Below, piece after piece: positions 1 through 11,830 of a stretch of DNA of 11,877 nucleotides (position 1 is its first letter; every line of letters starts with the position of its first letter). Source of the stretch: an uncultured bacterium (lineage in GTDB: Bacteria > Bdellovibrionota_F > JAHFAK01); NCBI GenBank assembly GCA_964600515.1, contig CAZRKD010000028.1:1-11877 (forward strand). Direction: 5' to 3'. Made by a program: the position numbers and the translations under genes. Below the pieces are notes generated by a model, which ran no database searches, was not told the DNA's origin, and was given only the letters and a program-made list of their open reading frames with translations.

Positions 1-215
1 TTCAAAAAACGAAATACTATTGGATTACTACCTTGGAAAGAACTTTGATTGATTGCTTATTACACAAAAAGCTTCTCGGACATCAGGTGGCGCTTGATGC
101 TTTGAAACAGGCTATTGATCAGCAAAAAGTAAAATTGGGAAAGGTCTATGATCTGGCTAAAAAAATGGGTGTGATCCATCGTATTTTACACTATATTGAG
201 GCAATGGGGTTATGA
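1..215 (+). CDS. Partial, 5'-truncated CDS. Putative C-terminal fragment of an AbiEi-family (type IV TA / abortive-infection) antitoxin-like regulator.
   Basis: The reading frame is open from the window edge at nt 3 with no upstream stop; the 60-aa ORF in the track begins at an internal TTG. It ends TGA at 213-215 and overlaps the next gene's ATG by 4 nt (ATGA), which indicates a coupled pair. The motif '..TLERTLIDCLL..' resembles the C-terminal region of AbiEi-type antitoxins; this is recalled from memory and not searched. Its position immediately upstream of a DUF1814 nucleotidyltransferase fits the family. Confidence 0.4.
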   Translation, partial: QKTKYYWITTLERTLIDCLLHKKLLGHQVALDALKQAIDQQKVKLGKVYDLAKKMGVIHRILHYIEAMGL

Positions 216-1081
216 ACCCAGAAAAGGAAAAACAGATTACTCGTGCTATGAAAAAGCTCATTCAAACTGAGCCTCGTCTCAATTTGAATGAGGTTCGTAT
301 CATCGTAGCTATAGAAAGGGCGATTGCGCGTCTGTCAACATTAACCGAATTGGCAAAACATTTGATATTTAAAGGTGGCTTTGTACTTCTTAAAAGTTAT
401 GAAAGTCTTCGTTTAACGAGAGATGCTGATGCTCTAGCCATAGTTATCTCGAAAGAAAAATTGAGTACTTTAGTTCAAAAAGCATTAGCAACTGATTTAA
501 AAGATGGATTGTGGTATGGAGATATTAAAGTACGAGAATTAACAAAACAGGGTGAATATGGTGCCTATCGTTTTGATTGTGCTTTCCAGATTGGAATGCC
601 TGATCAAAAAAAAGTTCATAAGCTTTCAAGAATCCATATTGATGTTAGTTTTAGCGATCGTTTGCCACGTAAGCCGGCTAATCAAGTTATGTCATCACTC
701 CTTGGACATGAAGAACCGGTGACATGGAGAATCTATCCTATTGAGTACATTATTTCAGAAAAACTTCAGACTTTCATTGATAGAGGATCTTCTAATTCAC
801 GTGCTAAGGATGTATATGACCTCATTTATCTTCTACCAAAGTGTACTGATACTGAAGCTTTATACGCTGCAATTAAAAGTACATTCGAAAATCGACACAC
901 GCAAATTCCCAGCTCATTTCTCAATCATGCAACTCAGTTTGATACGACAATACTTTCGCATGGATGGGCGGGCGTAAAAACACTCAAAGAAAAATCAAGT
1001 TTTGAAACTGCATGGGAAATGTTGATGAGATATCTTCAAGGCTTAGATAATTATATAAATATAAAAGGAGGAAAAGTATGA
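212..1081 (+). CDS. AbiEii/AbiGii-family nucleotidyltransferase (DUF1814-like putative toxin)
   Basis: 289 aa. The N-terminal 'HLIFKGGFVLLKSYESLRLTRDADAL' fits the pol-beta-type NTase signature GG-x13-DxDx, and a later 'IHIDVSF' supplies a third acidic motif, as in AbiEii. The start overlaps the upstream partial ORF (ATGA). Confidence 0.6.
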   Translation: MNPEKEKQITRAMKKLIQTEPRLNLNEVRIIVAIERAIARLSTLTELAKHLIFKGGFVLLKSYESLRLTRDADALAIVISKEKLSTLVQKALATDLKDGLWYGDIKVRELTKQGEYGAYRFDCAFQIGMPDQKKVHKLSRIHIDVSFSDRLPRKPANQVMSSLLGHEEPVTWRIYPIEYIISEKLQTFIDRGSSNSRAKDVYDLIYLLPKCTDTEALYAAIKSTFENRHTQIPSSFLNHATQFDTTILSHGWAGVKTLKEKSSFETAWEMLMRYLQGLDNYINIKGGKV

Positions 1082-1521
1082 ATTTTTTTGCTAAATTCAG
1101 CGACTATAGCTACGCACTCATGCGGATGGTCGTAGGTTTTATGTTTTCATTTCACGGAGTGCAGAAAATTTTTGGTATTTTAAGTGATTACCCGTCTCCA
1201 GCAATTGGAACACAAATGTGGTTTGGTGGATTAATTGAACTTATTGGCGGCTTTCTTATTATGGTTGGTTTCAAAACTCGCTGGGCGGCATTCATTACAA
1301 GCGGTATGATGGCTGTTGCATATTTTCAGTTTCATTGGAAATTTCAATTCAATACCAACTTTTTCCCCGCAATTAATCAAGGTGAGCCAGCAGTTCTTTA
1401 TTGCTTCATTTTTCTTTATATTGCTTGCAAAGGCAGCGGAATATGGAGTCTGGAAAAATTAGGTGCAGACCAACTCATGAACATATTTGGTATGGGGCAT
1501 ATCCCAATTCAAAAAGTGTGA
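1078..1521 (+). CDS. DoxX-family inner-membrane protein, with a 19-aa C-terminal extension contributed by a repeat element
   Basis: 147 aa with four predicted TM helices. It has the DoxX-like motifs 'MRMVVGFMFSFHGVQKIFG' and a near-terminal 'GSGIWSLEKL' (DoxX proteins normally end with G.G.WSLD). A strong RBS AAGGAGG lies 6 nt upstream, and the ATG overlaps the AbiEii stop (ATGA). The tail 'GADQLMNIFGMGHIPIQKV' comes from repeat copy 1. Confidence 0.7.
   Translation: MNFFAKFSDYSYALMRMVVGFMFSFHGVQKIFGILSDYPSPAIGTQMWFGGLIELIGGFLIMVGFKTRWAAFITSGMMAVAYFQFHWKFQFNTNFFPAINQGEPAVLYCFIFLYIACKGSGIWSLEKLGADQLMNIFGMGHIPIQKV
1462..1499 (+). repeat. Copy 1 of a 38-nt dispersed repeat (ggtgcagaccaacNNatgaNNNNatttggNatggggca). 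It forms the 3' end of the DoxX ORF.
   Basis: By manual alignment it is identical at about 34/38 positions to the reverse complement of 4853-4890 and at about 33/38 to the reverse complement of 7197-7234. A shared A-rich 5' flank (gaaRaaWta) precedes the copies at 1462 and 4853. Confidence 0.8.
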
Positions 1522-3037: not shown

Positions 3038-3478
3038 ATGAACCGTTTTGAAATCATTATATTTCTTTTCTTTAGTTTTGCTTGCGGGATTGGTTTATAT
3101 ACTTTTTATTATGCCAAAGGAGCATCGTATTTGACGAATGATCCACAAGCATGTGCAAATTGTCATATAATGGAAGATCATTATAGTGCATGGCTCAAAT
3201 CGAGTCATCGAAATGTAGCTACGTGTAATGATTGTCATGCACCTCATGATATTATTGGCAAATATTTCACCAAAGCTTTGAATGGATTTAACCATAGTCT
3301 TGCGTTTACTACCGGACGTTTCTCTGAACCTATCAGTATTACAAAACGTAATCATGAAATTACCGAAGCAAGCTGTCGATATTGTCATGCAAATATTACG
3401 AACATGATTGATCATAATCCTTCGGCAGATCAATTATCATGTGTACGCTGCCATGCCAATATTGGGCATGCACATTAA
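3038..3478 (+). CDS. nrfH: Cytochrome c nitrite reductase small subunit NrfH (NapC/NirT-family tetrahaem quinol dehydrogenase)
   Basis: 146 aa with an N-terminal TM anchor and four CXXCH motifs (CANCH, CNDCH, CRYCH, CVRCH). The first is CXXCHxM, as in Desulfovibrio NrfH haem 1. It lies 9 nt upstream of nrfA. Confidence 0.85.
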   Translation: MNRFEIIIFLFFSFACGIGLYTFYYAKGASYLTNDPQACANCHIMEDHYSAWLKSSHRNVATCNDCHAPHDIIGKYFTKALNGFNHSLAFTTGRFSEPISITKRNHEITEASCRYCHANITNMIDHNPSADQLSCVRCHANIGHAH

Positions 3479-3487
3479 GGAGAAATT

Positions 3488-4852
3488 ATGAATAAAAGAT
3501 TAATGATGATTGGAATGATTATTGTTGGAGCTATCGGTGCGCTTGGTATAACGAGTCTTCTCGTTACTATCTTCGAGCGAAAACAAGAAGCAAAGAATCC
3601 CTTTTATCGCGTGGTAGAAATTACCGATGAAACTGAGGATGCATCAGTATGGGGCAAGAACTTTCCTCTCCAATACGATGATTACTTGCGCACGGTAGAT
3701 ATGGTACGAACACGATATGGTGGAAGTGAAGCAACTCCACGAACGCCAAGCAAAGTAGATCCTCGATCTATTGTTTCCCAATCAAAAATAGAAGAAGATG
3801 AACGTTTAAAAACGATGTGGGCAGGCTATGCTTTTTCAAAAGACTTTCGTGAAGAACGAGGACATGGCTTCATGCTTGAAGATCAGACATTTACCGGTCG
3901 ACAAAAAGCAAGTCCTCAGCCTGGTGCATGTATAAACTGCCATGCTTCAACATATGTTGCAATGAAGGAATTAGGCGATGGTGATATTAAGAAAGGTTTT
4001 GAGAAACTCAATTCACTTCCCTATGGAGAAGCTCGTAAGCATGTTAAACATCCTGTTGGATGCGTTGATTGTCATGATGCAAAGACTATGCAGCTTCGTA
4101 TAACACGGCCAGCATTTATTGAAGGTATGAGAGTACTCAAGGCATCTCAAGGAATAAAAGATTATGATGTAAATACAATGGCAACACGCCAAGAAATGAG
4201 AAGCTTTGTTTGCGGACAATGCCACGTGGAATATTATTTTAAAGGAAAAGAAAAGACGCTCACCTATCCGTGGCATAAAGGTTTAGCTATAGAAAATATT
4301 ATTGCATATTATGATGAAGTTGGTCATAAGGATTGGGAACATGCTGAAACGGGAGCTCCAGTTCTCAAGGCTCAGCACCCTGAATTTGAGATGTGGAATC
4401 AAGGAATTCATGCTCGTTCTGGAGTTGCATGTGCAGATTGTCATATGCCGTACAAACGTGTTGGCGCTCAAAAAATTAGCGATCATCATGTACGAAGTCC
4501 TTTACTCAATATTGCACATTCATGCCAGACCTGTCATCGTTTTCCAGAAGCTGAACTCAAAGCGCGAGTTGAGCTGATTCAGTCGAAAACTTTTGAACTG
4601 CGTAATCGTGCAATGGATGCACTTATGGCTTTGATAACTGATTTAAAAAATGCGAAGGCTGTGGGTACATCGCAGGATACATTGAAAAAGACATGGGATT
4701 TTCAACGTAAAGCTCAGTTCATGATAGATTTTGTCGAAGCTGAAAACTCAACTGGATTTCATGCACCTCAAGAAGCGGCACGTATTCTAGGAACTGCGAT
4801 CGATCTTATTCGCCAAGGGCAAATGGAGATTTATAAAATAAAAAAGAATTAG
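3488..4852 (+). CDS. nrfA: Ammonia-forming cytochrome c nitrite reductase catalytic subunit NrfA (pentahaem); CXXCH-type active-site haem
   Basis: 454 aa with an RBS AAGGAG 7 nt upstream. It has five CXXCH motifs (CINCH, CVDCH, CGQCH, CADCH, CQTCH). The NrfA signature blocks 'WAGY.FS.D..E.RGH' and 'FVCGQCHVEYYF' are near-identical to E. coli NrfA. The N-terminus has one hydrophobic helix acting as a signal or anchor. Confidence 0.88.
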   Translation: MNKRLMMIGMIIVGAIGALGITSLLVTIFERKQEAKNPFYRVVEITDETEDASVWGKNFPLQYDDYLRTVDMVRTRYGGSEATPRTPSKVDPRSIVSQSKIEEDERLKTMWAGYAFSKDFREERGHGFMLEDQTFTGRQKASPQPGACINCHASTYVAMKELGDGDIKKGFEKLNSLPYGEARKHVKHPVGCVDCHDAKTMQLRITRPAFIEGMRVLKASQGIKDYDVNTMATRQEMRSFVCGQCHVEYYFKGKEKTLTYPWHKGLAIENIIAYYDEVGHKDWEHAETGAPVLKAQHPEFEMWNQGIHARSGVACADCHMPYKRVGAQKISDHHVRSPLLNIAHSCQTCHRFPEAELKARVELIQSKTFELRNRAMDALMALITDLKNAKAVGTSQDTLKKTWDFQRKAQFMIDFVEAENSTGFHAPQEAARILGTAIDLIRQGQMEIYKIKKN

Positions 4853-5583
4853 TGCCCCATACCAAATGTAGTCATAAGTTGGTCTGCACCTATTTCTTCA
4901 ACAATTTTTTTTGCTGCATTGGCAGGTGTGCCAATTGCTCTTGGTGGCTTTGTGATTGGCCGGCCAATGACTAAAAGAGATGCGCCGGCTCTGATTGCTT
5001 CAGCCGGGGTCATGACTCGCTTTTGATCGCCAAGGGCTGCCCATTCGGGACGAACACCCGGGGTAATTTTGAGTAAATTGTCTAGATCGTGATGCTTCCC
5101 CAGTAATGTGAGTTCTTGAGGCGAGCAAATGATTCCATCACATCCAGCTAAGAGTGCATCTTGCGCAAATTGCAAAACTTTTGTTTGAGAAGACTCACCA
5201 AAAATATGATAAACAGTATTTTCATCAAGTGCAGTTAAAACAGTAACCGCAAGAACGAGTGATTGTCCTTTATTGGCAACCGCAGCTTTCATGGCTTCTA
5301 TGCCTGCTGATGCATGCACATTAAACATTTTAACCTTAAGCCGTGCAACTGATTTTGCCGCAGCTGCAACGGTATTTGGAATATCATCAAACTTTCCATC
5401 AAAAAAAATTTCTCCCCCGAGTGAATGAATACATTCGACGACTTGAGGAGCCCCCACAGCGGTGATTAACTCTAGGCCAACTTTAAAATATCCTACATGT
5501 GGGGCAAGACTTTCGACCAGCGATTTCGCATCATCTAAATTATCTTCATCAAGCGCGACAATAATTCTGTCTTTTGCGTCCAT
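4849..5583 (-). CDS. pyrF: Orotidine-5'-phosphate decarboxylase, with a 13-aa C-terminal tail derived from the repeat
   Basis: 244 aa with OMP-decarboxylase motifs 'IVALD', 'FKVGLEL', 'DxKxxDIPNT' and 'VIGRPI'. Its stop codon overlaps the nrfA stop (TTAG). The tail 'GADQLMTTFGMGH' follows the '..AAKKIVEEI' terminus typical of the family. Confidence 0.85.
   Translation of the reverse strand: MDAKDRIIVALDEDNLDDAKSLVESLAPHVGYFKVGLELITAVGAPQVVECIHSLGGEIFFDGKFDDIPNTVAAAAKSVARLKVKMFNVHASAGIEAMKAAVANKGQSLVLAVTVLTALDENTVYHIFGESSQTKVLQFAQDALLAGCDGIICSPQELTLLGKHHDLDNLLKITPGVRPEWAALGDQKRVMTPAEAIRAGASLLVIGRPITKPPRAIGTPANAAKKIVEEIGADQLMTTFGMGH
4853..4890 (-). repeat. Copy 2 of the 38-nt repeat (minus orientation). 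It forms the 3' end of the pyrF ORF.
   Basis: The reverse complement reads ggtgcagaccaacttatgactacatttggtatggggca, which encodes the PyrF tail GADQLMTTFGMGH. The repeat starts 1 nt after the nrfA stop codon. Confidence 0.8.
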
Positions 5584-5682: not shown

Positions 5683-6198
5683 ATGGAAACAACAAAGCAT
5701 GTTCGTCCTTCGTGGGATGACTACTTTATGGAAGTCGCCAATACGATTTCAAAGCGTGCTACGTGTGATCGCGGCCGAAGTGGCTGCGTAATTGCGCGCG
5801 ATAGTCATCTTCTTGTTACTGGCTATGTTGGTTCTCCAACGGGACTCGCTCATTGCGATGATGTTGGACACCAGATGAAGAAATTACTTCATGAAGATGG
5901 AACAATAACCAATCATTGCGTACGAACCGTTCATGCGGAACAAAATGCTATATGCCAAGCCGCAAAGCTCGGTGTTTCGATTGCAGGAGCAACATTATAT
6001 TGTCGAATGACTCCGTGTCGAGTGTGCGCGATGCTTATTATTAATTGCGGAATATCTCGAGTTGTGTGCGAACGGCGCTATCATGATGGAACTCAGTCTG
6101 AGGCTATGTTTAAAGAAGCTCACATTAAACTGGAATATAAATTTGATGAAGTCCAAAAGTATGCCAATCAGGCAGAAATATCAAAAACTATTTCTTAA
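5683..6198 (+). CDS. comEB: Deoxycytidylate (dCMP) deaminase / ComEB-family cytidine-deoxycytidylate deaminase
   Basis: 171 aa. It has the zinc-binding motifs 'HAEQNAI' (H-A-E) and 'PCRVCA' (PCxxC), and the N-terminus 'RPSWDDYFMEVA' typical of dCMP deaminases. Confidence 0.8.
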   Translation: METTKHVRPSWDDYFMEVANTISKRATCDRGRSGCVIARDSHLLVTGYVGSPTGLAHCDDVGHQMKKLLHEDGTITNHCVRTVHAEQNAICQAAKLGVSIAGATLYCRMTPCRVCAMLIINCGISRVVCERRYHDGTQSEAMFKEAHIKLEYKFDEVQKYANQAEISKTIS

Positions 6199-7027
6199 TT
6201 TCTAATAACGTTTTTCTTCTTGGCTTAAAATTAAATTCCTCGCCATTTTTCTTAATTGAAAGGTGAAGATCACCAAAAAGGCAGGTCTTAATTTCTGTTG
6301 GGTTTTCTCGTTCAAACAGTAAAAATTGTTCCTGAGATGCAAATCCCTTAAAGATAATTTCTATTTCAGGATAACGAACTCTACCCGATATTTCTAAAGT
6401 ATTGTCCACTTTATCACCACAGGATTTCATTTTAATGTTCAAAAAATTACTAAAAGGATCATTGAATTTGTATTCTTTGCCTTGAAAGTAGAGATACGCA
6501 CTTGCCGCCCACTTTCCAAATATTTTCGATGATGCAATTTCAAATACACTTTCTTTGTCATCAAAACCGCTCGAGCTTATGAGTGTCCATTGCGACGTAG
6601 AAAGCTTTTTTGCTTCATATGTTGCCCATGCAATGGGTGTGTGTGAGAAGTTTTTATTATTACACGTACCCTTTGTAATTAATCCATAATGAGATGTAAA
6701 ATAGGGTATTTGCGGTCTGAGCGTATGAATCCAGCGAGGAGTAAATTCGAATTCTCGCGTAGATAAATTAAAATGAAGATTGAGATTAACATCTCCCCAA
6801 GTTCCAAGAGCATCTTCTTTGGTCAGCTTCAAGGTATGTATTGATATCGTATTTTCATTAAATGAATATTGATTGGGTGTAAAAATTTCTTTGCGAACAA
6901 ATTGTTTTCCATCATCATGGGCAAATGCAGCTCGAAGAATCGGAGTTCCCTCTTTCACTATCCAATCAATCAAAAAAGCATTTTTTCCGGTTGAAGAAAA
7001 AATGTACCAAAATTTATTTGTTTTCAT
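6188..7027 (-). CDS. Hypothetical protein with no family recognisable by eye
   Basis: 279 aa, rich in K/N/F, with no TM helix or signal peptide and no motif I recognise. It starts 16 nt downstream of the tRNA-Ser 3' end on the same strand, with no clear SD. It overlaps the comEB 3' end by 11 nt (convergent). Codon usage is AT-rich and uniform over the full length, which supports it being a real gene. Confidence 0.5.
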   Translation of the reverse strand: MKTNKFWYIFSSTGKNAFLIDWIVKEGTPILRAAFAHDDGKQFVRKEIFTPNQYSFNENTISIHTLKLTKEDALGTWGDVNLNLHFNLSTREFEFTPRWIHTLRPQIPYFTSHYGLITKGTCNNKNFSHTPIAWATYEAKKLSTSQWTLISSSGFDDKESVFEIASSKIFGKWAASAYLYFQGKEYKFNDPFSNFLNIKMKSCGDKVDNTLEISGRVRYPEIEIIFKGFASQEQFLLFERENPTEIKTCLFGDLHLSIKKNGEEFNFKPRRKTLLEIKK

Positions 7028-7043
7028 AATTTACGCTTACATT

Positions 7044-7133
<90 letters not shown>

Positions 7134-7196: not shown

Positions 7197-7234
7197 TGCC
7201 CCATCCCAAATGAGTTCATTTGTTGGTCTGCACC
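7197..7234 (-). repeat. Copy 3 of the 38-nt repeat (minus orientation). It is non-coding and sits between the divergent tRNA-Ser and ABC-transporter promoters.
   Basis: The reverse complement reads ggtgcagaccaacaaatgaactcatttgggatggggca. It preserves the same frame (GADQQMNSFGMGH) but is not part of an ORF: a TGA lies 19 codons upstream, with no start codon in between. Confidence 0.8.
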
Positions 7235-7238
7235 TTTA

Positions 7239-7274: not shown

Positions 7275-8021
7275 ATGATTAGTCTTCATGCTGTTTCAAA
7301 AGCCTATGATGGAAAAGTCATAGTTCATAATCTTACAACATCGTTTCACAAAGAGAAGATCCATATACTTCTTGGCCCAAGCGGTTCAGGTAAAACAACA
7401 ATCTTACGGCTTATTATGGGGCTTATTGAACCTGATACGGGTGAAATACAGATTAATGATACAATTGTATCACGGCAGAAGCATAGGGATATTGCTTCAC
7501 AGATTGGTTATGTAATTCAAGAAAGTGGATTATTCCCTCATTTGTCAGCAAAAGAAAATGTTACGTTAGTAGCAAAGCTCCGGGGTTGGAAAAAAGAATC
7601 GATACAAAAAAGATTAGAAGAACTCTTGCGGCTCGTTAATCTTGATAATGATAGTATACGACGTTATCCACAAGAACTTTCGGGAGGCCAGCGTAAACGT
7701 GTGAGTCTCATGCGTGCGTTGATGCTCGATCCTCCCTATCTCTTGCTCGATGAACCGTTAGGCGCACTTGATCCTATCATTCGCTCAGAACTTCAAGCTG
7801 AGCTCAAAAGGATTTTTTCAGTACTTAAGAAAACCGTCATTCTCGTAACCCACGATATTAATGAAGCCGCTCTTTTTGGAGATACGATTAGCCTTTTTCA
7901 TCAAGGAGCTATTATTCAACAAGGTACATTCGAGGAGCTTTGTATAAAACCAACGACTACTTTTGTGACTCAATTTATTGATGCGCAAAAGCCACCTCAA
8001 AATATACGGAAATTTTTATGA
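7275..8021 (+). CDS. Osmoprotectant (glycine betaine/choline/carnitine-type) ABC transporter ATP-binding protein, OpuCA/YehX-like, lacking C-terminal CBS domains
   Basis: 248 aa with Walker A GPSGSGKTT, Q-loop, signature LSGGQRKRV, Walker B LLLDEP and H-loop THD. It ends TGA overlapping the next gene's ATG (ATGA). Confidence 0.8.
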   Translation: MISLHAVSKAYDGKVIVHNLTTSFHKEKIHILLGPSGSGKTTILRLIMGLIEPDTGEIQINDTIVSRQKHRDIASQIGYVIQESGLFPHLSAKENVTLVAKLRGWKKESIQKRLEELLRLVNLDNDSIRRYPQELSGGQRKRVSLMRALMLDPPYLLLDEPLGALDPIIRSELQAELKRIFSVLKKTVILVTHDINEAALFGDTISLFHQGAIIQQGTFEELCIKPTTTFVTQFIDAQKPPQNIRKFL

Positions 8022-9499
8022 AATATCTCACTCTTATGAGTTTTTTTCTTTTGTTTATTTCTCAATCATTCGGTCAAGAAACACGAGATAAAACTATTGT
8101 CGTTGGTTCAAAAACATTTACCGAGAGTTATATCCTCGCCGAAATTATTGCGGAAGTTATCGAAGATGTTGGCGAGGCAAAGGTAGAGCGGCGTTTTGGG
8201 CTTGGAGGAACGGGCATAGTGTTTACCGCGCTTGAAACGGGCGAAATAGATATTTATCCCGAATATACAGGAACAATCACCGAAGTAATTATTAAAAATC
8301 CAACGATTACTTCGGTTAAAGATATTCGTGAGGCTTTAGCGAATAAAAATCTCATTATCAGTGAATCGTTAGGATTCAATAATACCTATGCGATTGCGCT
8401 TAAACGAAGCACGGCCGAAAAATTACACATTAAAACAATAACTGATCTTATGAAACATCCCGGAATTCTTGTTGGTTTTAGCCATGAATTTTTAAAACGA
8501 AATGACGGTTTCCCAGCTCTCGAGAAAGCATATGGATTAAATCTTACGAATGTCATTGGAATTCAACATGGGCTTGCCTATACGGCAATTGAGAGCGGCA
8601 AGATTGAGTTAACCGATATTTATTCTACCGATGCAAAACTCACAAAATTCGATTTAGAAATTTTAAAAGATGATCATAATTTTTTTCCACAATACTATGC
8701 CGTTCTCTTTGCTCGAAAAAAACTTGCCGAAGAATTCCCGAAAACATGGCATGCGCTTCAAAAACTTGAAGGAAGAATACGTGATGAAAAAATGCAAGAG
8801 CTCAATGCCCGAGCTGAAATAGATAAAAAGACCTTTCAAGAAGTTGCACTCGAATTTAGAGGGGAATTACGCAAAGGCACTCAGTCGAGTTTTTTAAAAA
8901 AATTATGGGAGGTAAGCCTCGAGCATTTGTATTTAGTCATGATTTCTCTTGTTGCTGCGATCTTTATTGGGGTACCATTAGGAATAATAGCAACGCGATA
9001 TCAATTGCTCGGGCAGGCAATATTACTCGTCAGCGGATTACTGCAGACAATCCCATCGCTGGCACTCCTTTGTTTTCTTATCCCATTTTTTGGCATTGGT
9101 ACATTGCCATCACTTGTCGCTCTTTTTTTATACGGACTCTTACCTATTGTTCGCAATACCTACAGCGGTATAATTTCATTAGATCCACACTATCGAGAAA
9201 CTGCACGGGCACTTGGGCTTACTCACGTGGAAGAGTTACGATTTGTTGAACTTCCCTTAGCTTCAATTACGCTTATTTCGGGTATAAAAACATCGGCGGT
9301 TATCAATGTTGGTACAGCAACCCTCGCAGCACTCATTGGTGCGGGTGGTTATGGCAAATTAATTATTACCGGCTTAGCACTGAACGATATTCCCACGATT
9401 CTCTCCGGTGCCATCCCTGCTGCCCTTATGGCGCTCGTTATCCATGCATGCTTTGAAGTACTTGATAGAATTATTATTCCAAAGGGGATTAGATTATAA
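8018..9499 (+). CDS. Fused substrate-binding protein and permease of an OpuC/YehZ-YehW-type osmoprotectant ABC importer (N-terminal periplasmic binding domain, C-terminal TMD)
   Basis: 493 aa. The signal peptide is MKYLTLMSFFLLFISQSFG|QE. An OpuAC-family binding domain follows ('VVGSKTFTESYILAEIIAEVIED', as in OpuCC/YehZ). After residue 300 come about 6 TM helices with an EAA-loop-like 'ETARALGLTHVEELRFVELPLA' typical of BPD_transp_1 permeases. Confidence 0.8.
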   Translation: MKYLTLMSFFLLFISQSFGQETRDKTIVVGSKTFTESYILAEIIAEVIEDVGEAKVERRFGLGGTGIVFTALETGEIDIYPEYTGTITEVIIKNPTITSVKDIREALANKNLIISESLGFNNTYAIALKRSTAEKLHIKTITDLMKHPGILVGFSHEFLKRNDGFPALEKAYGLNLTNVIGIQHGLAYTAIESGKIELTDIYSTDAKLTKFDLEILKDDHNFFPQYYAVLFARKKLAEEFPKTWHALQKLEGRIRDEKMQELNARAEIDKKTFQEVALEFRGELRKGTQSSFLKKLWEVSLEHLYLVMISLVAAIFIGVPLGIIATRYQLLGQAILLVSGLLQTIPSLALLCFLIPFFGIGTLPSLVALFLYGLLPIVRNTYSGIISLDPHYRETARALGLTHVEELRFVELPLASITLISGIKTSAVINVGTATLAALIGAGGYGKLIITGLALNDIPTILSGAIPAALMALVIHACFEVLDRIIIPKGIRL

Positions 9500-10264
9500 T
9501 CCAAACAGACATTTCGTATTTTCTTCAGTAATAGTATCTATTTCTTCAAGAGTTTTATTCTTAATTCGTGCGACTTCTTCGGCAATATATTTTACATACG
9601 CTGGTTCATTGCGTTTACCACGAAAGGGAACGGGGGCTAGGAATGGAGCGTCAGTTTCAATGAGAATGCGATCGAGCGGTACGTGTTTACAGGTTTCTTT
9701 AAGCGCATCGGTTTTTTTAAATGTGAGTATTCCAGAAAATGAAATAGAGAAACCAAGATCAAGAAAGAGCTGTGCGTGTTCTCTCGTTCCCGTAAAGCAA
9801 TGAATCACGCCGCGCAAGTGATTATTTTTACAGTATGAAGCAATTATCTCATGTGCTTCGATAAATGCATCACGGACATGGACAATAATGGGAAGTTGTA
9901 ATTCCAGTGCAAGCTCAATTTGTTCTCGGAAAACTTTCTGCTGCATATCCCGCGAACTTGCGTTGTAATAAAAATCGAGTCCAATTTCACCGATTGCTAC
10001 AAATCGCTTATGTGAATTTACGATTTTTTTTATGTTTGTTCTAGACTCAGGTGAGAATGAATCAGCACGATGGGGATGAATGCCTATACTAGAATAGATA
10101 AAATCATATGCATTAAGTAACTCAGCTGTTTTAGTGTCGGCGAGATTATCCGTACATGCTAACGATAGCATTTTTGTGATCCCAGCGGCCTTTGCTCGGC
10201 CTATTACGAGAGTTCGATCGCTATCAAATGCATCAAGGTCAAGATGGCAATGACTATCAATCAT
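9494..10264 (-). CDS. tatD: TatD-family metal-dependent hydrolase/DNase
   Basis: 256 aa. It has an N-terminal 'MIDSHCHLD' and conserved His/Glu/Asp blocks (..IGEIGLD.., ..PIIVHVRDA.., ..GVIHCFTG.., ..ILIETDAPFL..). Its stop overlaps the permease stop by 6 nt (convergent). Confidence 0.85.
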   Translation of the reverse strand: MIDSHCHLDLDAFDSDRTLVIGRAKAAGITKMLSLACTDNLADTKTAELLNAYDFIYSSIGIHPHRADSFSPESRTNIKKIVNSHKRFVAIGEIGLDFYYNASSRDMQQKVFREQIELALELQLPIIVHVRDAFIEAHEIIASYCKNNHLRGVIHCFTGTREHAQLFLDLGFSISFSGILTFKKTDALKETCKHVPLDRILIETDAPFLAPVPFRGKRNEPAYVKYIAEEVARIKNKTLEEIDTITEENTKCLFGL

Positions 10265-10321: not shown

Positions 10322-11260
10322 CTAGCTTACTTTCTCCTCCTGGGTTTTATGAGGGTTAAACGATTTTATTTTTGGTATGCCCGGGGATTCCTCAACGTCT
10401 CGATAATTATCTTCAATTCGACGTAACATATCTCGTCCAAGTATTTTCTCAGGTGTATCTTCCGGAGCAGCTTGAATTACTTTTCTAACTCCACAGGCTG
10501 AAATTGTTTTGATGGTTCCGTCTTTTGTTTCAATCGTAATTTGTCGTGGAAGAATGTTGAGATATTTGACTTTGCACTCTCCATCTTCGCTTGTTGCAAT
10601 AAGATCATTGACCTTTGGTAGGCCTTGTGAACAATTACAATAATTTTTTTCTTCGTATGATAGACAACATTTTAATTTTCCACATAAGCCCGTGAGTTTC
10701 GTGGGATTCATTGATAGGCCTTGATTTTTAGCGGCACTAACTGCAAGCGGAGAAAAAGAATTAATATAGCGATTACAGCAGAGTTGTTGTCCGCATGGAC
10801 CAATACCTCCAATTTGTTTTGTTTCTTCGCGAGGACCAATTTGCATCATCTGAATACGTGTATGTAATTCTTGTGCAAGATCTTTTACCAATTCTCGAAA
10901 ATCGACTCGATTATCAGATGTATAGAAAAACGTAGCTTGAGAGCCATTTGCATGAAATTCGACACGAGAGAGTTTCATGGTGAGATTTCTTTCTTTAATT
11001 TTATCCAAACAATAATTAAATGCTTGAACTTGCCGTTTTTCATTGTGTGCTTCACGTTCCAAATCTTCTTTTGTTGCAACTCGTACAATACGATCACGTA
11101 TCTTTGTATCAGGAAGATTAATAATGAGCGAGATCTTGCCAACTTTGAGACCATCTTTTGTGTCTGCAACCACAAGATCACCAACGCGTATTTTAATATC
11201 AGAAGCATTAATACTTTCGGGCCGGATACTATTTTTAAATTTGACTTTCGCTATGCGCAT
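10322..11260 (-). CDS. ricT: PSP1 C-terminal-domain protein (YaaT/RicT-like)
   Basis: 312 aa. It has the diagnostic PSP1 cysteine motifs 'GPCGQQLCCNRY' and 'GLCGKLKCCLSYEE', an RBS AAGGAG 5 nt upstream, and a 26-nt overlap with the upstream holB. This matches the conserved holB-yaaT synteny of Firmicutes. Confidence 0.8.
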   Translation of the reverse strand: MRIAKVKFKNSIRPESINASDIKIRVGDLVVADTKDGLKVGKISLIINLPDTKIRDRIVRVATKEDLEREAHNEKRQVQAFNYCLDKIKERNLTMKLSRVEFHANGSQATFFYTSDNRVDFRELVKDLAQELHTRIQMMQIGPREETKQIGGIGPCGQQLCCNRYINSFSPLAVSAAKNQGLSMNPTKLTGLCGKLKCCLSYEEKNYCNCSQGLPKVNDLIATSEDGECKVKYLNILPRQITIETKDGTIKTISACGVRKVIQAAPEDTPEKILGRDMLRRIEDNYRDVEESPGIPKIKSFNPHKTQEEKVS

Positions 11261-11830
11261 AGAGACTCCTTAATCTTAAATGTAAATTGGTTAATGTTAA
11301 TTGAACATTACAATTTTCTTTAATTCTTTTCTCAAGTGATAGACTGTAATCAATACACTGGAAAAGTCTTTCGTCATAATGAATGTCAGAATTATTATGT
11401 GCTCCAATACGATCTTTCAAGCACATAAGTACCTCGCCGACATATTCCTTAAGTGTTTCTTTATCTTTAATGAGAAGAGCGTTTTCGGCAAGGGAATCGG
11501 CTGTATGGAAATTGAGATTATATGCTTTCTTTTCACCTGCAGTATTTTCTTTAGGTAAAGAAGATAAAGCTTGGGCCTTCAAGATACAGCTTCGTGATTG
11601 AATCGTCGGCAGTATCGCTCGTTTCGTATGGGCAATAAAAAACATAATAGTATTCGGTGGCGGTTCTTCGATTGTTTTTAAAAGTGCATTTTGTGTTTGG
11701 ATATTCATCGTATCTGCATCATCGATGATTACAATTTTATAACGTGCTTCAAGCGGTGCAAAATCAAGAAATGCTATAATTTCCCGTGCCGATGCGATGC
11801 GAATCATGTCTTTCTCAGATGTAATAATAC
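11235..11830 (-). CDS. holB: DNA polymerase III delta' subunit (HolB; clamp-loader AAA+), N-terminally truncated by the contig end/adapter
   Basis: 'KIVIIDDADTMNIQTQNALLKTIEEPPPNTIMFFIA' and 'TIQSRSCILK' are the Walker-B/sensor-1 region and the SRC motif of clamp-loader subunits. The reading frame stays open upstream of the track's ATG (11807) to 11830 (..GIITSEKD-MIRIAS..), where adapter sequence begins. The Walker-A N-terminus is missing. Confidence 0.7.

Follow-up and report, generated by a model that had tools for sequence, protein, structure and literature searches.

The window, by which we mean the whole stretch of 11,877 nucleotides (nt) analysed here (contig CAZRKD010000028.1, from an uncultured bacterium of the lineage Bdellovibrionota_F), begins with three open reading frames (ORFs) on the forward strand, at 3-215, 212-1081 (289 amino acids, aa) and 1078-1521 (147 aa). 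They encode the end of an AbiEi-like antitoxin, an AbiEii toxin and a DoxX-family membrane protein, respectively. A preliminary description of the locus had pointed out that these ORFs are chained by two 4-nt ATGA overlaps (212-215 and 1078-1081), which direct reading of the sequence bore out. Here we consider what relation DoxX has to the AbiE toxin-antitoxin (TA) pair. The features of this region are as follows.

3 to 215, forward strand: 3' end of abiEi (last 70 codons; the full antitoxin is ~190 aa), with the frame open to the contig start and a TGA stop at 213-215
212 to 215, forward strand: ATGA stop/start overlap of abiEi and abiEii, read directly in the context ggttATGAac
212 to 1081, forward strand: abiEii, encoding a 289-aa DUF1814 nucleotidyltransferase toxin with matches to PF08843, PADLOC AbiEii and PDB 9hlo_B
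1065 to 1071, forward strand: Shine-Dalgarno (SD) sequence AAGGAGG of doxX, 6 nt before the ATG and within the last abiEii codons
1078 to 1081, forward strand: ATGA stop/start overlap of abiEii and doxX, read directly in the context agtATGAat
1078 to 1521, forward strand: doxX, encoding a 147-aa DoxX-family membrane protein (PF07681), with core residues 1-127 (about 1078-1458) followed by a repeat-derived tail
1461 to 1499, forward strand: copy of a ~39-nt dispersed repeat in the doxX 3' end, which stands in place of the native doxX stop and contributes …GADQLMNIFGMGH… to the protein

The AbiE pair at the contig start

The 289-aa protein matched PF08843 (AbiEii) with an E value of 1.2e-26 and 94.6 bits (cut-off 22.5), the PADLOC AbiEii model with an E value of 1e-41 and PDB entry 9hlo_B with an E value of 1.3e-15. 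The assignment to DUF1814/AbiEii, first made from the sequence alone, is thereby confirmed by the Pfam match. Its nearest homologues are uncharacterised metagenomic proteins, the closest of which is 73% identical, and homologue lengths range over 279-292 aa. An exact-protein look-up with the AbiEii ORF as submitted returned no entry. Mutant data demonstrated that nucleotidyltransferase (NTase) motifs I (hGG), II (R..DhD), III (KLxxaxxR) and IV (+DxxD) are needed for the toxicity of AbiEii from Streptococcus agalactiae (PMC3985639). All of them are kept in the window protein, namely G55 and G56 of motif I, R67, D71 and D73 of motif II, K184 and R191 of motif III and K199-D200-x-x-D203 of motif IV. 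These residues align with the same residues of 9hlo_B and, in an alignment of the window protein with 19 homologues (53-72% identical, 267-292 aa), are invariant across all 20 sequences except for K184, which is nearly so. T69, located within R67-L-T69-R-D71-A-D73, is also invariant in this alignment and is the equivalent of T65 of S. agalactiae AbiEii, an auto-phosphorylated threonine two residues before the first aspartate of motif II (bioRxiv 10.64898/2026.01.19.700257). The same preprint describes a tRNA-directed activity of the AbiEii toxin. With its full length and every residue required for toxicity kept, the abiEii toxin appears intact.

The 70-aa AbiEi fragment had no match in Pfam. 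Against PADLOC, it matched the C-terminal ~60 positions of 13 AbiEi models (134-194 of 198), the best with an E value of 1.5e-12. Moreover, the fragment is 66-69% identical, without a frameshift, to the C-termini of the 160-217-aa proteins whose genes directly precede those of AbiEii homologues; an AbiEi_4 match is present in most of these proteins. The PADLOC match and the identity to these partner proteins sustain the earlier view that the first ORF is AbiEi-like. The winged helix-turn-helix (wHTH) at the N-terminus of AbiEi and the promoter and operator lie off the contig, and the identification of the antitoxin rests on its last 70 residues.

AbiEii-homologue loci (~20, from other organisms) were collected by six exact-protein look-ups and a metagenome scan (11 loci). 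At all those with gene calls, the upstream 160-217-aa gene is present and shares 4 nt with the toxin gene, and the abiE operon of S. agalactiae likewise has a 4-nt overlap between antitoxin stop and toxin start (PMC3985639). As these loci are annotated, the first overlap of the window is a feature shared across the family.

The window pair thus resembles AbiE of S. agalactiae and Lactococcus in its PF08843 toxin, in which NTase motifs I-IV and the phospho-acceptor threonine are kept, and in its upstream antitoxin gene with a 4-nt overlap into the toxin gene. It differs from them in that its AbiEii is distant in sequence from the characterised proteins and in that the last ~5 toxin codons are encoded by the ribosome-binding site of the neighbouring gene. 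Originally classified under Type IV, AbiE has been moved to Type VII by a 2026 preprint; it is grouped with the DUF1814/COG5340 MenAT family of Mycobacterium tuberculosis. At the level of sequence, the window pair agrees with AbiE in every respect that can be tested on the contig.

The left end of the pair coincides with the contig start. Two further assemblies, L001 and L085, evidently come from the same organism, being 1-3 single-nucleotide polymorphisms (SNPs) away from the window with the same gene arrangement, and the window, L001 and L085 all end at the same base (+/-1) within abiEi. This common break point in three assemblies suggests that a repeat, or a junction that varies in the population, lies immediately before the window. 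One explanation would be that the AbiE module is damaged, with abiEi cut short or interrupted shortly before base 1 (e.g. by an insertion sequence (IS) element or a rearrangement), and is decaying like the brnTA genes of two relatives described below. In line with this explanation, three separate assemblies stop at one base, and a collection of 5.8 billion proteins contained no full-length AbiEi with the C-terminus of the fragment, its matches being two partial proteins at 67-69% identity. However, the abiEi frame stays free of stops as far as the contig edge and follows the C-termini of the partner proteins without a frameshift, and abiEii retains all catalytic residues, while an intact toxin should not be tolerated without its antitoxin. 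In addition, contigs of this organism also break at a short dispersed repeat, the other end of L085 falling inside the repeat copy at 4853, and the break at base 1 may likewise be an effect of assembly. Damage to the module is, in our judgement, unlikely.

Separately, a hairpin was found at 257-292, inside abiEii codons 16-27, which consists of a 15-bp inverted repeat with a 6-nt loop and folds on the forward strand with -18.9 kcal/mol (z -4.9). It was considered as a regulatory element of the AbiE family and rejected, because it is absent from the AbiEii-homologue loci. On the reverse strand, a T-run follows the hairpin, which makes it terminator-like.

doxX and its translation start

The 147-aa protein matched PF07681 (DoxX) with an E value of 9e-13 and 49.1 bits (cut-off 23.6), consistent with the first description of the third ORF as DoxX, and did not reach the cut-offs of the HvfX and DoxD equivalog models in NCBIfam. 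Hydrophobic segments are present in its Kyte-Doolittle profile. The DoxX family includes DoxX of the SodA-SseA-DoxX complex of M. tuberculosis and DoxD of thiosulfate:quinone oxidoreductase. Homologues of the window protein (n = 2951) are typically 127-129 aa long, and most among the matches listed span 86% of the query. The window protein shares the Pfam DoxX domain with this family and belongs to a highly conserved subfamily of 127-129 aa, but it differs in a 20-residue C-terminal extension that derives from a dispersed repeat. This subfamily is conserved at 59-82% identity across metagenome-assembled genomes (MAGs) labelled Omnitrophota, Nitrospirota, Elusimicrobia, Planctomycetes, Zixibacteria, Melainabacteria and others, and such high conservation over many phyla hints at strong constraint or frequent transfer. 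As the AbiEi, AbiEii and DoxX calls all hold by Pfam or PADLOC, a misassigned family, one of the three options raised at the outset for the unusual gene order, is rejected.

We scanned for DoxX with one genome per species, which gave 349 relatives, and took the best 80 loci with 6-kb flanks. Neither AbiEi nor AbiEii was found by tblastn within 6 kb of doxX in any of the 79 of these loci that come from other genomes. The upstream neighbours of doxX differ in family, strand and distance, and include MsrA, SRPBCC/AHSA1 proteins, a chromate transporter and opposite-strand genes. The reverse search gave a corresponding picture. A DoxX hidden Markov model (HMM) built from 120 homologues found no DoxX at any of the ~20 AbiEii-homologue loci, its match being in L085, which is the same organism. 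The genes downstream of the homologous AbiE pairs are mutually unrelated (nothing, a transposase, an Rv2179c-like gene or unknown genes). In L106-L108, the toxin gene overlaps the downstream Rv2179c-like gene by 23 nt, so that AbiE cassettes adjoin unrelated genes elsewhere too.

The start region of doxX explains the second overlap. Among the orthologues, doxX starts with ATGA in 70 of 77, and a GGAGG-type SD precedes those starts that were listed. In L006, an unrelated msrA terminates on doxX's own start ATGA. Because ATGA is the native start context of doxX, the TGA of the second overlap is supplied by doxX, and any upstream frame entering in the right register would terminate there. ATGA overlaps are, moreover, found in 3 of the 7 same-strand neighbouring gene pairs of the window, and convergent genes overlap too. 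The second overlap is real, but the functional information in it is almost nil.

Correspondingly, doxX has a strong SD of its own, which is found at the same position before doxX in L003, L004 and L006. The DNA similarity of the window with these three relatives starts at the doxX SD and runs on through doxX. A strong SD common to relatives that lack the overlap is a predicted independent initiation signal, and it speaks against a dependence of doxX translation on abiEii. From the side of the toxin, the conserved part of AbiEii ends at D279 (1046-1048), beyond which the tails of the homologues range from 0 to 14 residues, and the last abiEii codons (K-G-G-K-V-stop) coincide with the SD and start region of doxX.

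These data bear directly on the proposal of a three-component AbiE variant, in which DoxX would have been recruited as a membrane sensor or effector and held at a fixed ratio to the toxin by translational coupling. In its favour are the two consecutive ATGA overlaps with zero intergenic space and the recurrence of the arrangement, with 1-3 base differences, in L001 and L085, although both are evidently the same organism. Against it, AbiE and DoxX do not co-occur in either direction of the survey, doxX is part of a syntenic backbone in relatives without AbiE (see below), and doxX has its own SD and native ATGA start. The DoxX protein had no match among the PADLOC models, and no AbiE-DoxX link is described in the searched literature, where two papers contain both terms but draw no connection between them in title or abstract. 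A three-component system is therefore highly improbable. The preliminary description had held that tight coupling normally signals stoichiometric co-function, which the absence of AbiE from all 79 DoxX loci and the separate SD of doxX leave unsupported here; the variant module with a recruited membrane component that it had offered as one option shows no conservation among relatives. It had also named doxX loci of relatives that lack the NTase pair as the mark of an accidental coupling by simple insertion, and this is what the 79 loci show.

In a scan for terminator-like sites, none was found on the forward strand before doxX, where intergenic space is also absent. A promoter scan found 7 promoter-like sites against 6.8 expected, which is chance level and leaves the scan without power in this AT-rich DNA; the sole promoter-like match near doxX, at 1022-1051, is weak. 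From the lack of room for an intergenic promoter or terminator, we infer that at least part of the doxX transcription probably comes from read-through out of the cassette or from a promoter within abiEii.

Relatives and the remainder of the window

Among the relatives, L003 (labelled Deltaproteobacteria bacterium nzgw173) is the closest genome. In it, the backbone doxX-band7-dCMP deaminase-orf279-tatD-PSP1-holB is found in the same order and orientation as in the window at 57-89% amino-acid identity (82% for DoxX). AbiE is absent from L003. In its place directly upstream of doxX, L003 and two other relatives carry another TA pair or what is left of it.

L003, 4786 to 5275, same orientation as doxX: intact BrnT/BrnA pair, with 12 nt between its end and the doxX ATG
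L004, 186 to 386, upstream of doxX: decayed, internally deleted brnTA, next to an identical DoxX
L110, 459 to 493, flanked by an unrelated ORF and doxX: 35 nt left over from the 5' end of brnA, next to a DoxX that is 82% identical

Read in the order L003, L004 and L110, these loci form a small decay series of one TA cassette beside an unchanged doxX.

The BrnT/BrnA cassette resembles the AbiE pair of the window in position and orientation, both lying directly upstream of the doxX SD. In contrast, BrnT/BrnA belongs to a TA family (PF04365 with PF14384) that is unrelated to AbiE. It terminates at a stop codon of its own and is separated from doxX by 12 nt, whereas abiEii overlaps doxX, and in two of the three relatives it has decayed. 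Judged from the compared sequences, doxX is a stable part of the backbone and the DNA just upstream of it is variable, with TA cassettes being gained and lost there. Of the options considered initially, it is the insertion of a TA cassette directly in front of doxX that these relatives support, since they hold BrnT/BrnA or its remnants at the same position.

A further reading of these data is that the spot upstream of the doxX SD is a recurrent landing site that captures TA cassettes, with doxX expression wired to the autoregulation of the TA operon or to its derepression under stress. Two unrelated TA cassettes that share an orientation and stop within 0-15 nt of the doxX SD would agree with this, as would the TA remnants that are still at the site in L004 and L110 and, in the window, the lack of a forward-strand terminator-like site before doxX and the weakness of the nearby promoter-like match. 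However, only two or three related lineages with such cassettes were seen, and doxX is intact in L004 and L110 despite the decayed TA genes, so that a working cassette is apparently dispensable. The promoter scan, being powerless in such DNA, lends the reading little. We consider a wired landing site rather unlikely; if it were true, the expression of a widely conserved, redox-associated membrane protein may follow TA autoregulation.

At its 3' end, doxX has been changed by a different process. In the comparison with L003, homology breaks off at ~1455. L003 has D-K-K-stop at this point, and the window continues for 20 codons through a dispersed repeat with the core AGGTGCAGACCAAC..ATGA....ATTTGG.ATGGGGCA. 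The repeat has three copies in the window, one of which is that in doxX; the others are as follows.

4853 to 4891, reverse strand: final 13 codons of pyrF, read in the frame that is also used in doxX
7197 to 7235, reverse strand: in the intergenic space that separates tRNA-Ser from the ABC transporter gene

The repeat gives both DoxX and PyrF a C-terminal tail of the form GADQLMxxFGMGH, and the pyrF tail creates a convergent 4-nt overlap of pyrF and nrfA. It is absent from the fetched loci of other organisms, including L003. As a structured, REP-like palindrome the repeat was rejected, since it folds weakly (z +0.6 to -2.0). The in-frame capture of a repeat at gene ends is reminiscent of the Rickettsia palindromic elements. 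The earlier remark that a repeat copy at the doxX 3' end gives the locus a remodelled look proved well founded, in that the repeat extended doxX and the cupin gene that follows is absent from relatives. This remodelling of the doxX 3' end is unrelated to AbiE.

The other features of the window are listed below.

1566 to 2078: cupin_5 gene, downstream of doxX and absent from relatives
3038 to 5583: nrfH-nrfA (cytochrome c nitrite reductase) and pyrF, absent from the syntenic L003 stretch
5683 to 6198: dCMP deaminase gene (PADLOC 'dCTPase', E 2.5e-18)
6188 to 7027, reverse strand: 279-aa ORF (orf279) without a Pfam match, 73% identical and syntenic in L003
7044 to 7133: tRNA-Ser (Rfam)
7275 to 9499: fused opuC-like ABC transporter gene, absent from the syntenic L003 stretch
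9494 to 10264: tatD (PADLOC 'QatD', E 1.6e-27)
11235 to 11807: cut holB ORF, 190 aa as against 286 aa in L003
11831 to 11877: adapter sequence CTGTCTCTTATACACATCTGACGCTGCCGACGA and index bases, assembled onto the contig end

Since the cupin_5 gene, nrfH-nrfA, pyrF and the ABC transporter gene are absent from the L003 stretch, the backbone is interrupted by several lineage-specific insertions. The dCMP deaminase and TatD are probably housekeeping look-alikes of defence proteins, as both are encoded by lone backbone genes without partner genes. PADLOC found no second defence system among ten further window proteins, the two ABC-transporter proteins being left out. In the AbiE-doxX region, the Rfam scan detected nothing, its only match in the window being the tRNA-Ser at 7044-7133. 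The sequence at the right end, the Illumina Nextera transposase adapter, was assembled onto the contig, and holB is therefore cut; the window appears to be the whole contig.

Interpretation of the locus

The locus is best explained by a canonical two-gene AbiE cassette that was inserted, or swapped in, directly upstream of a conserved chromosomal doxX, the second overlap being a by-product of the insertion. We hold this to be very probable. The window would then start inside abiEi-abiEii, a mobile and self-contained cassette. By analogy with characterised homologues, AbiEii would be an NTase of the DNA-polymerase-beta type that adds nucleotides to tRNA acceptor ends and so halts translation. 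AbiEi would repress the operon through its N-terminal winged helix, and its C-terminal domain may neutralise the toxin by inducing auto-phosphorylation of the conserved threonine, here T69. The two genes are predicted, again from the homologous systems, to be translationally coupled through the first ATGA. doxX would be a separate backbone gene, whose translation starts from its own strong SD. The abiEii frame would read through this SD and terminate at the TGA of the native doxX ATG-A start, leaving an accidental second ATGA.

Several points weigh against this explanation. The contig begins within abiEi, and the left border of the insertion, the N-terminus of AbiEi and the promoter thus lie outside it. 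The abiE genes have a GC content of 36%, against 38.5% in the backbone, which gives no compositional sign of a recent transfer. In addition, a TA cassette lies within 0-15 nt of the doxX SD in two lineages, where doxX consequently has no obvious promoter of its own, so that some regulatory dependence of doxX on the cassette is possible.

For the AbiE family, which is already known, the locus is a further uncharacterised pair that adjoins a housekeeping gene, and its import beyond annotation is small; the source is an AT-rich, groundwater-type bacterium. The locus also illustrates clearly that an ATGA overlap by itself is no indicator of co-function. If its own stop is lost or missing, a mobile cassette will terminate on the ATG-A start of the gene that it abuts, which calls for caution in guilt-by-association screens that nominate defence components by 4-nt overlaps.

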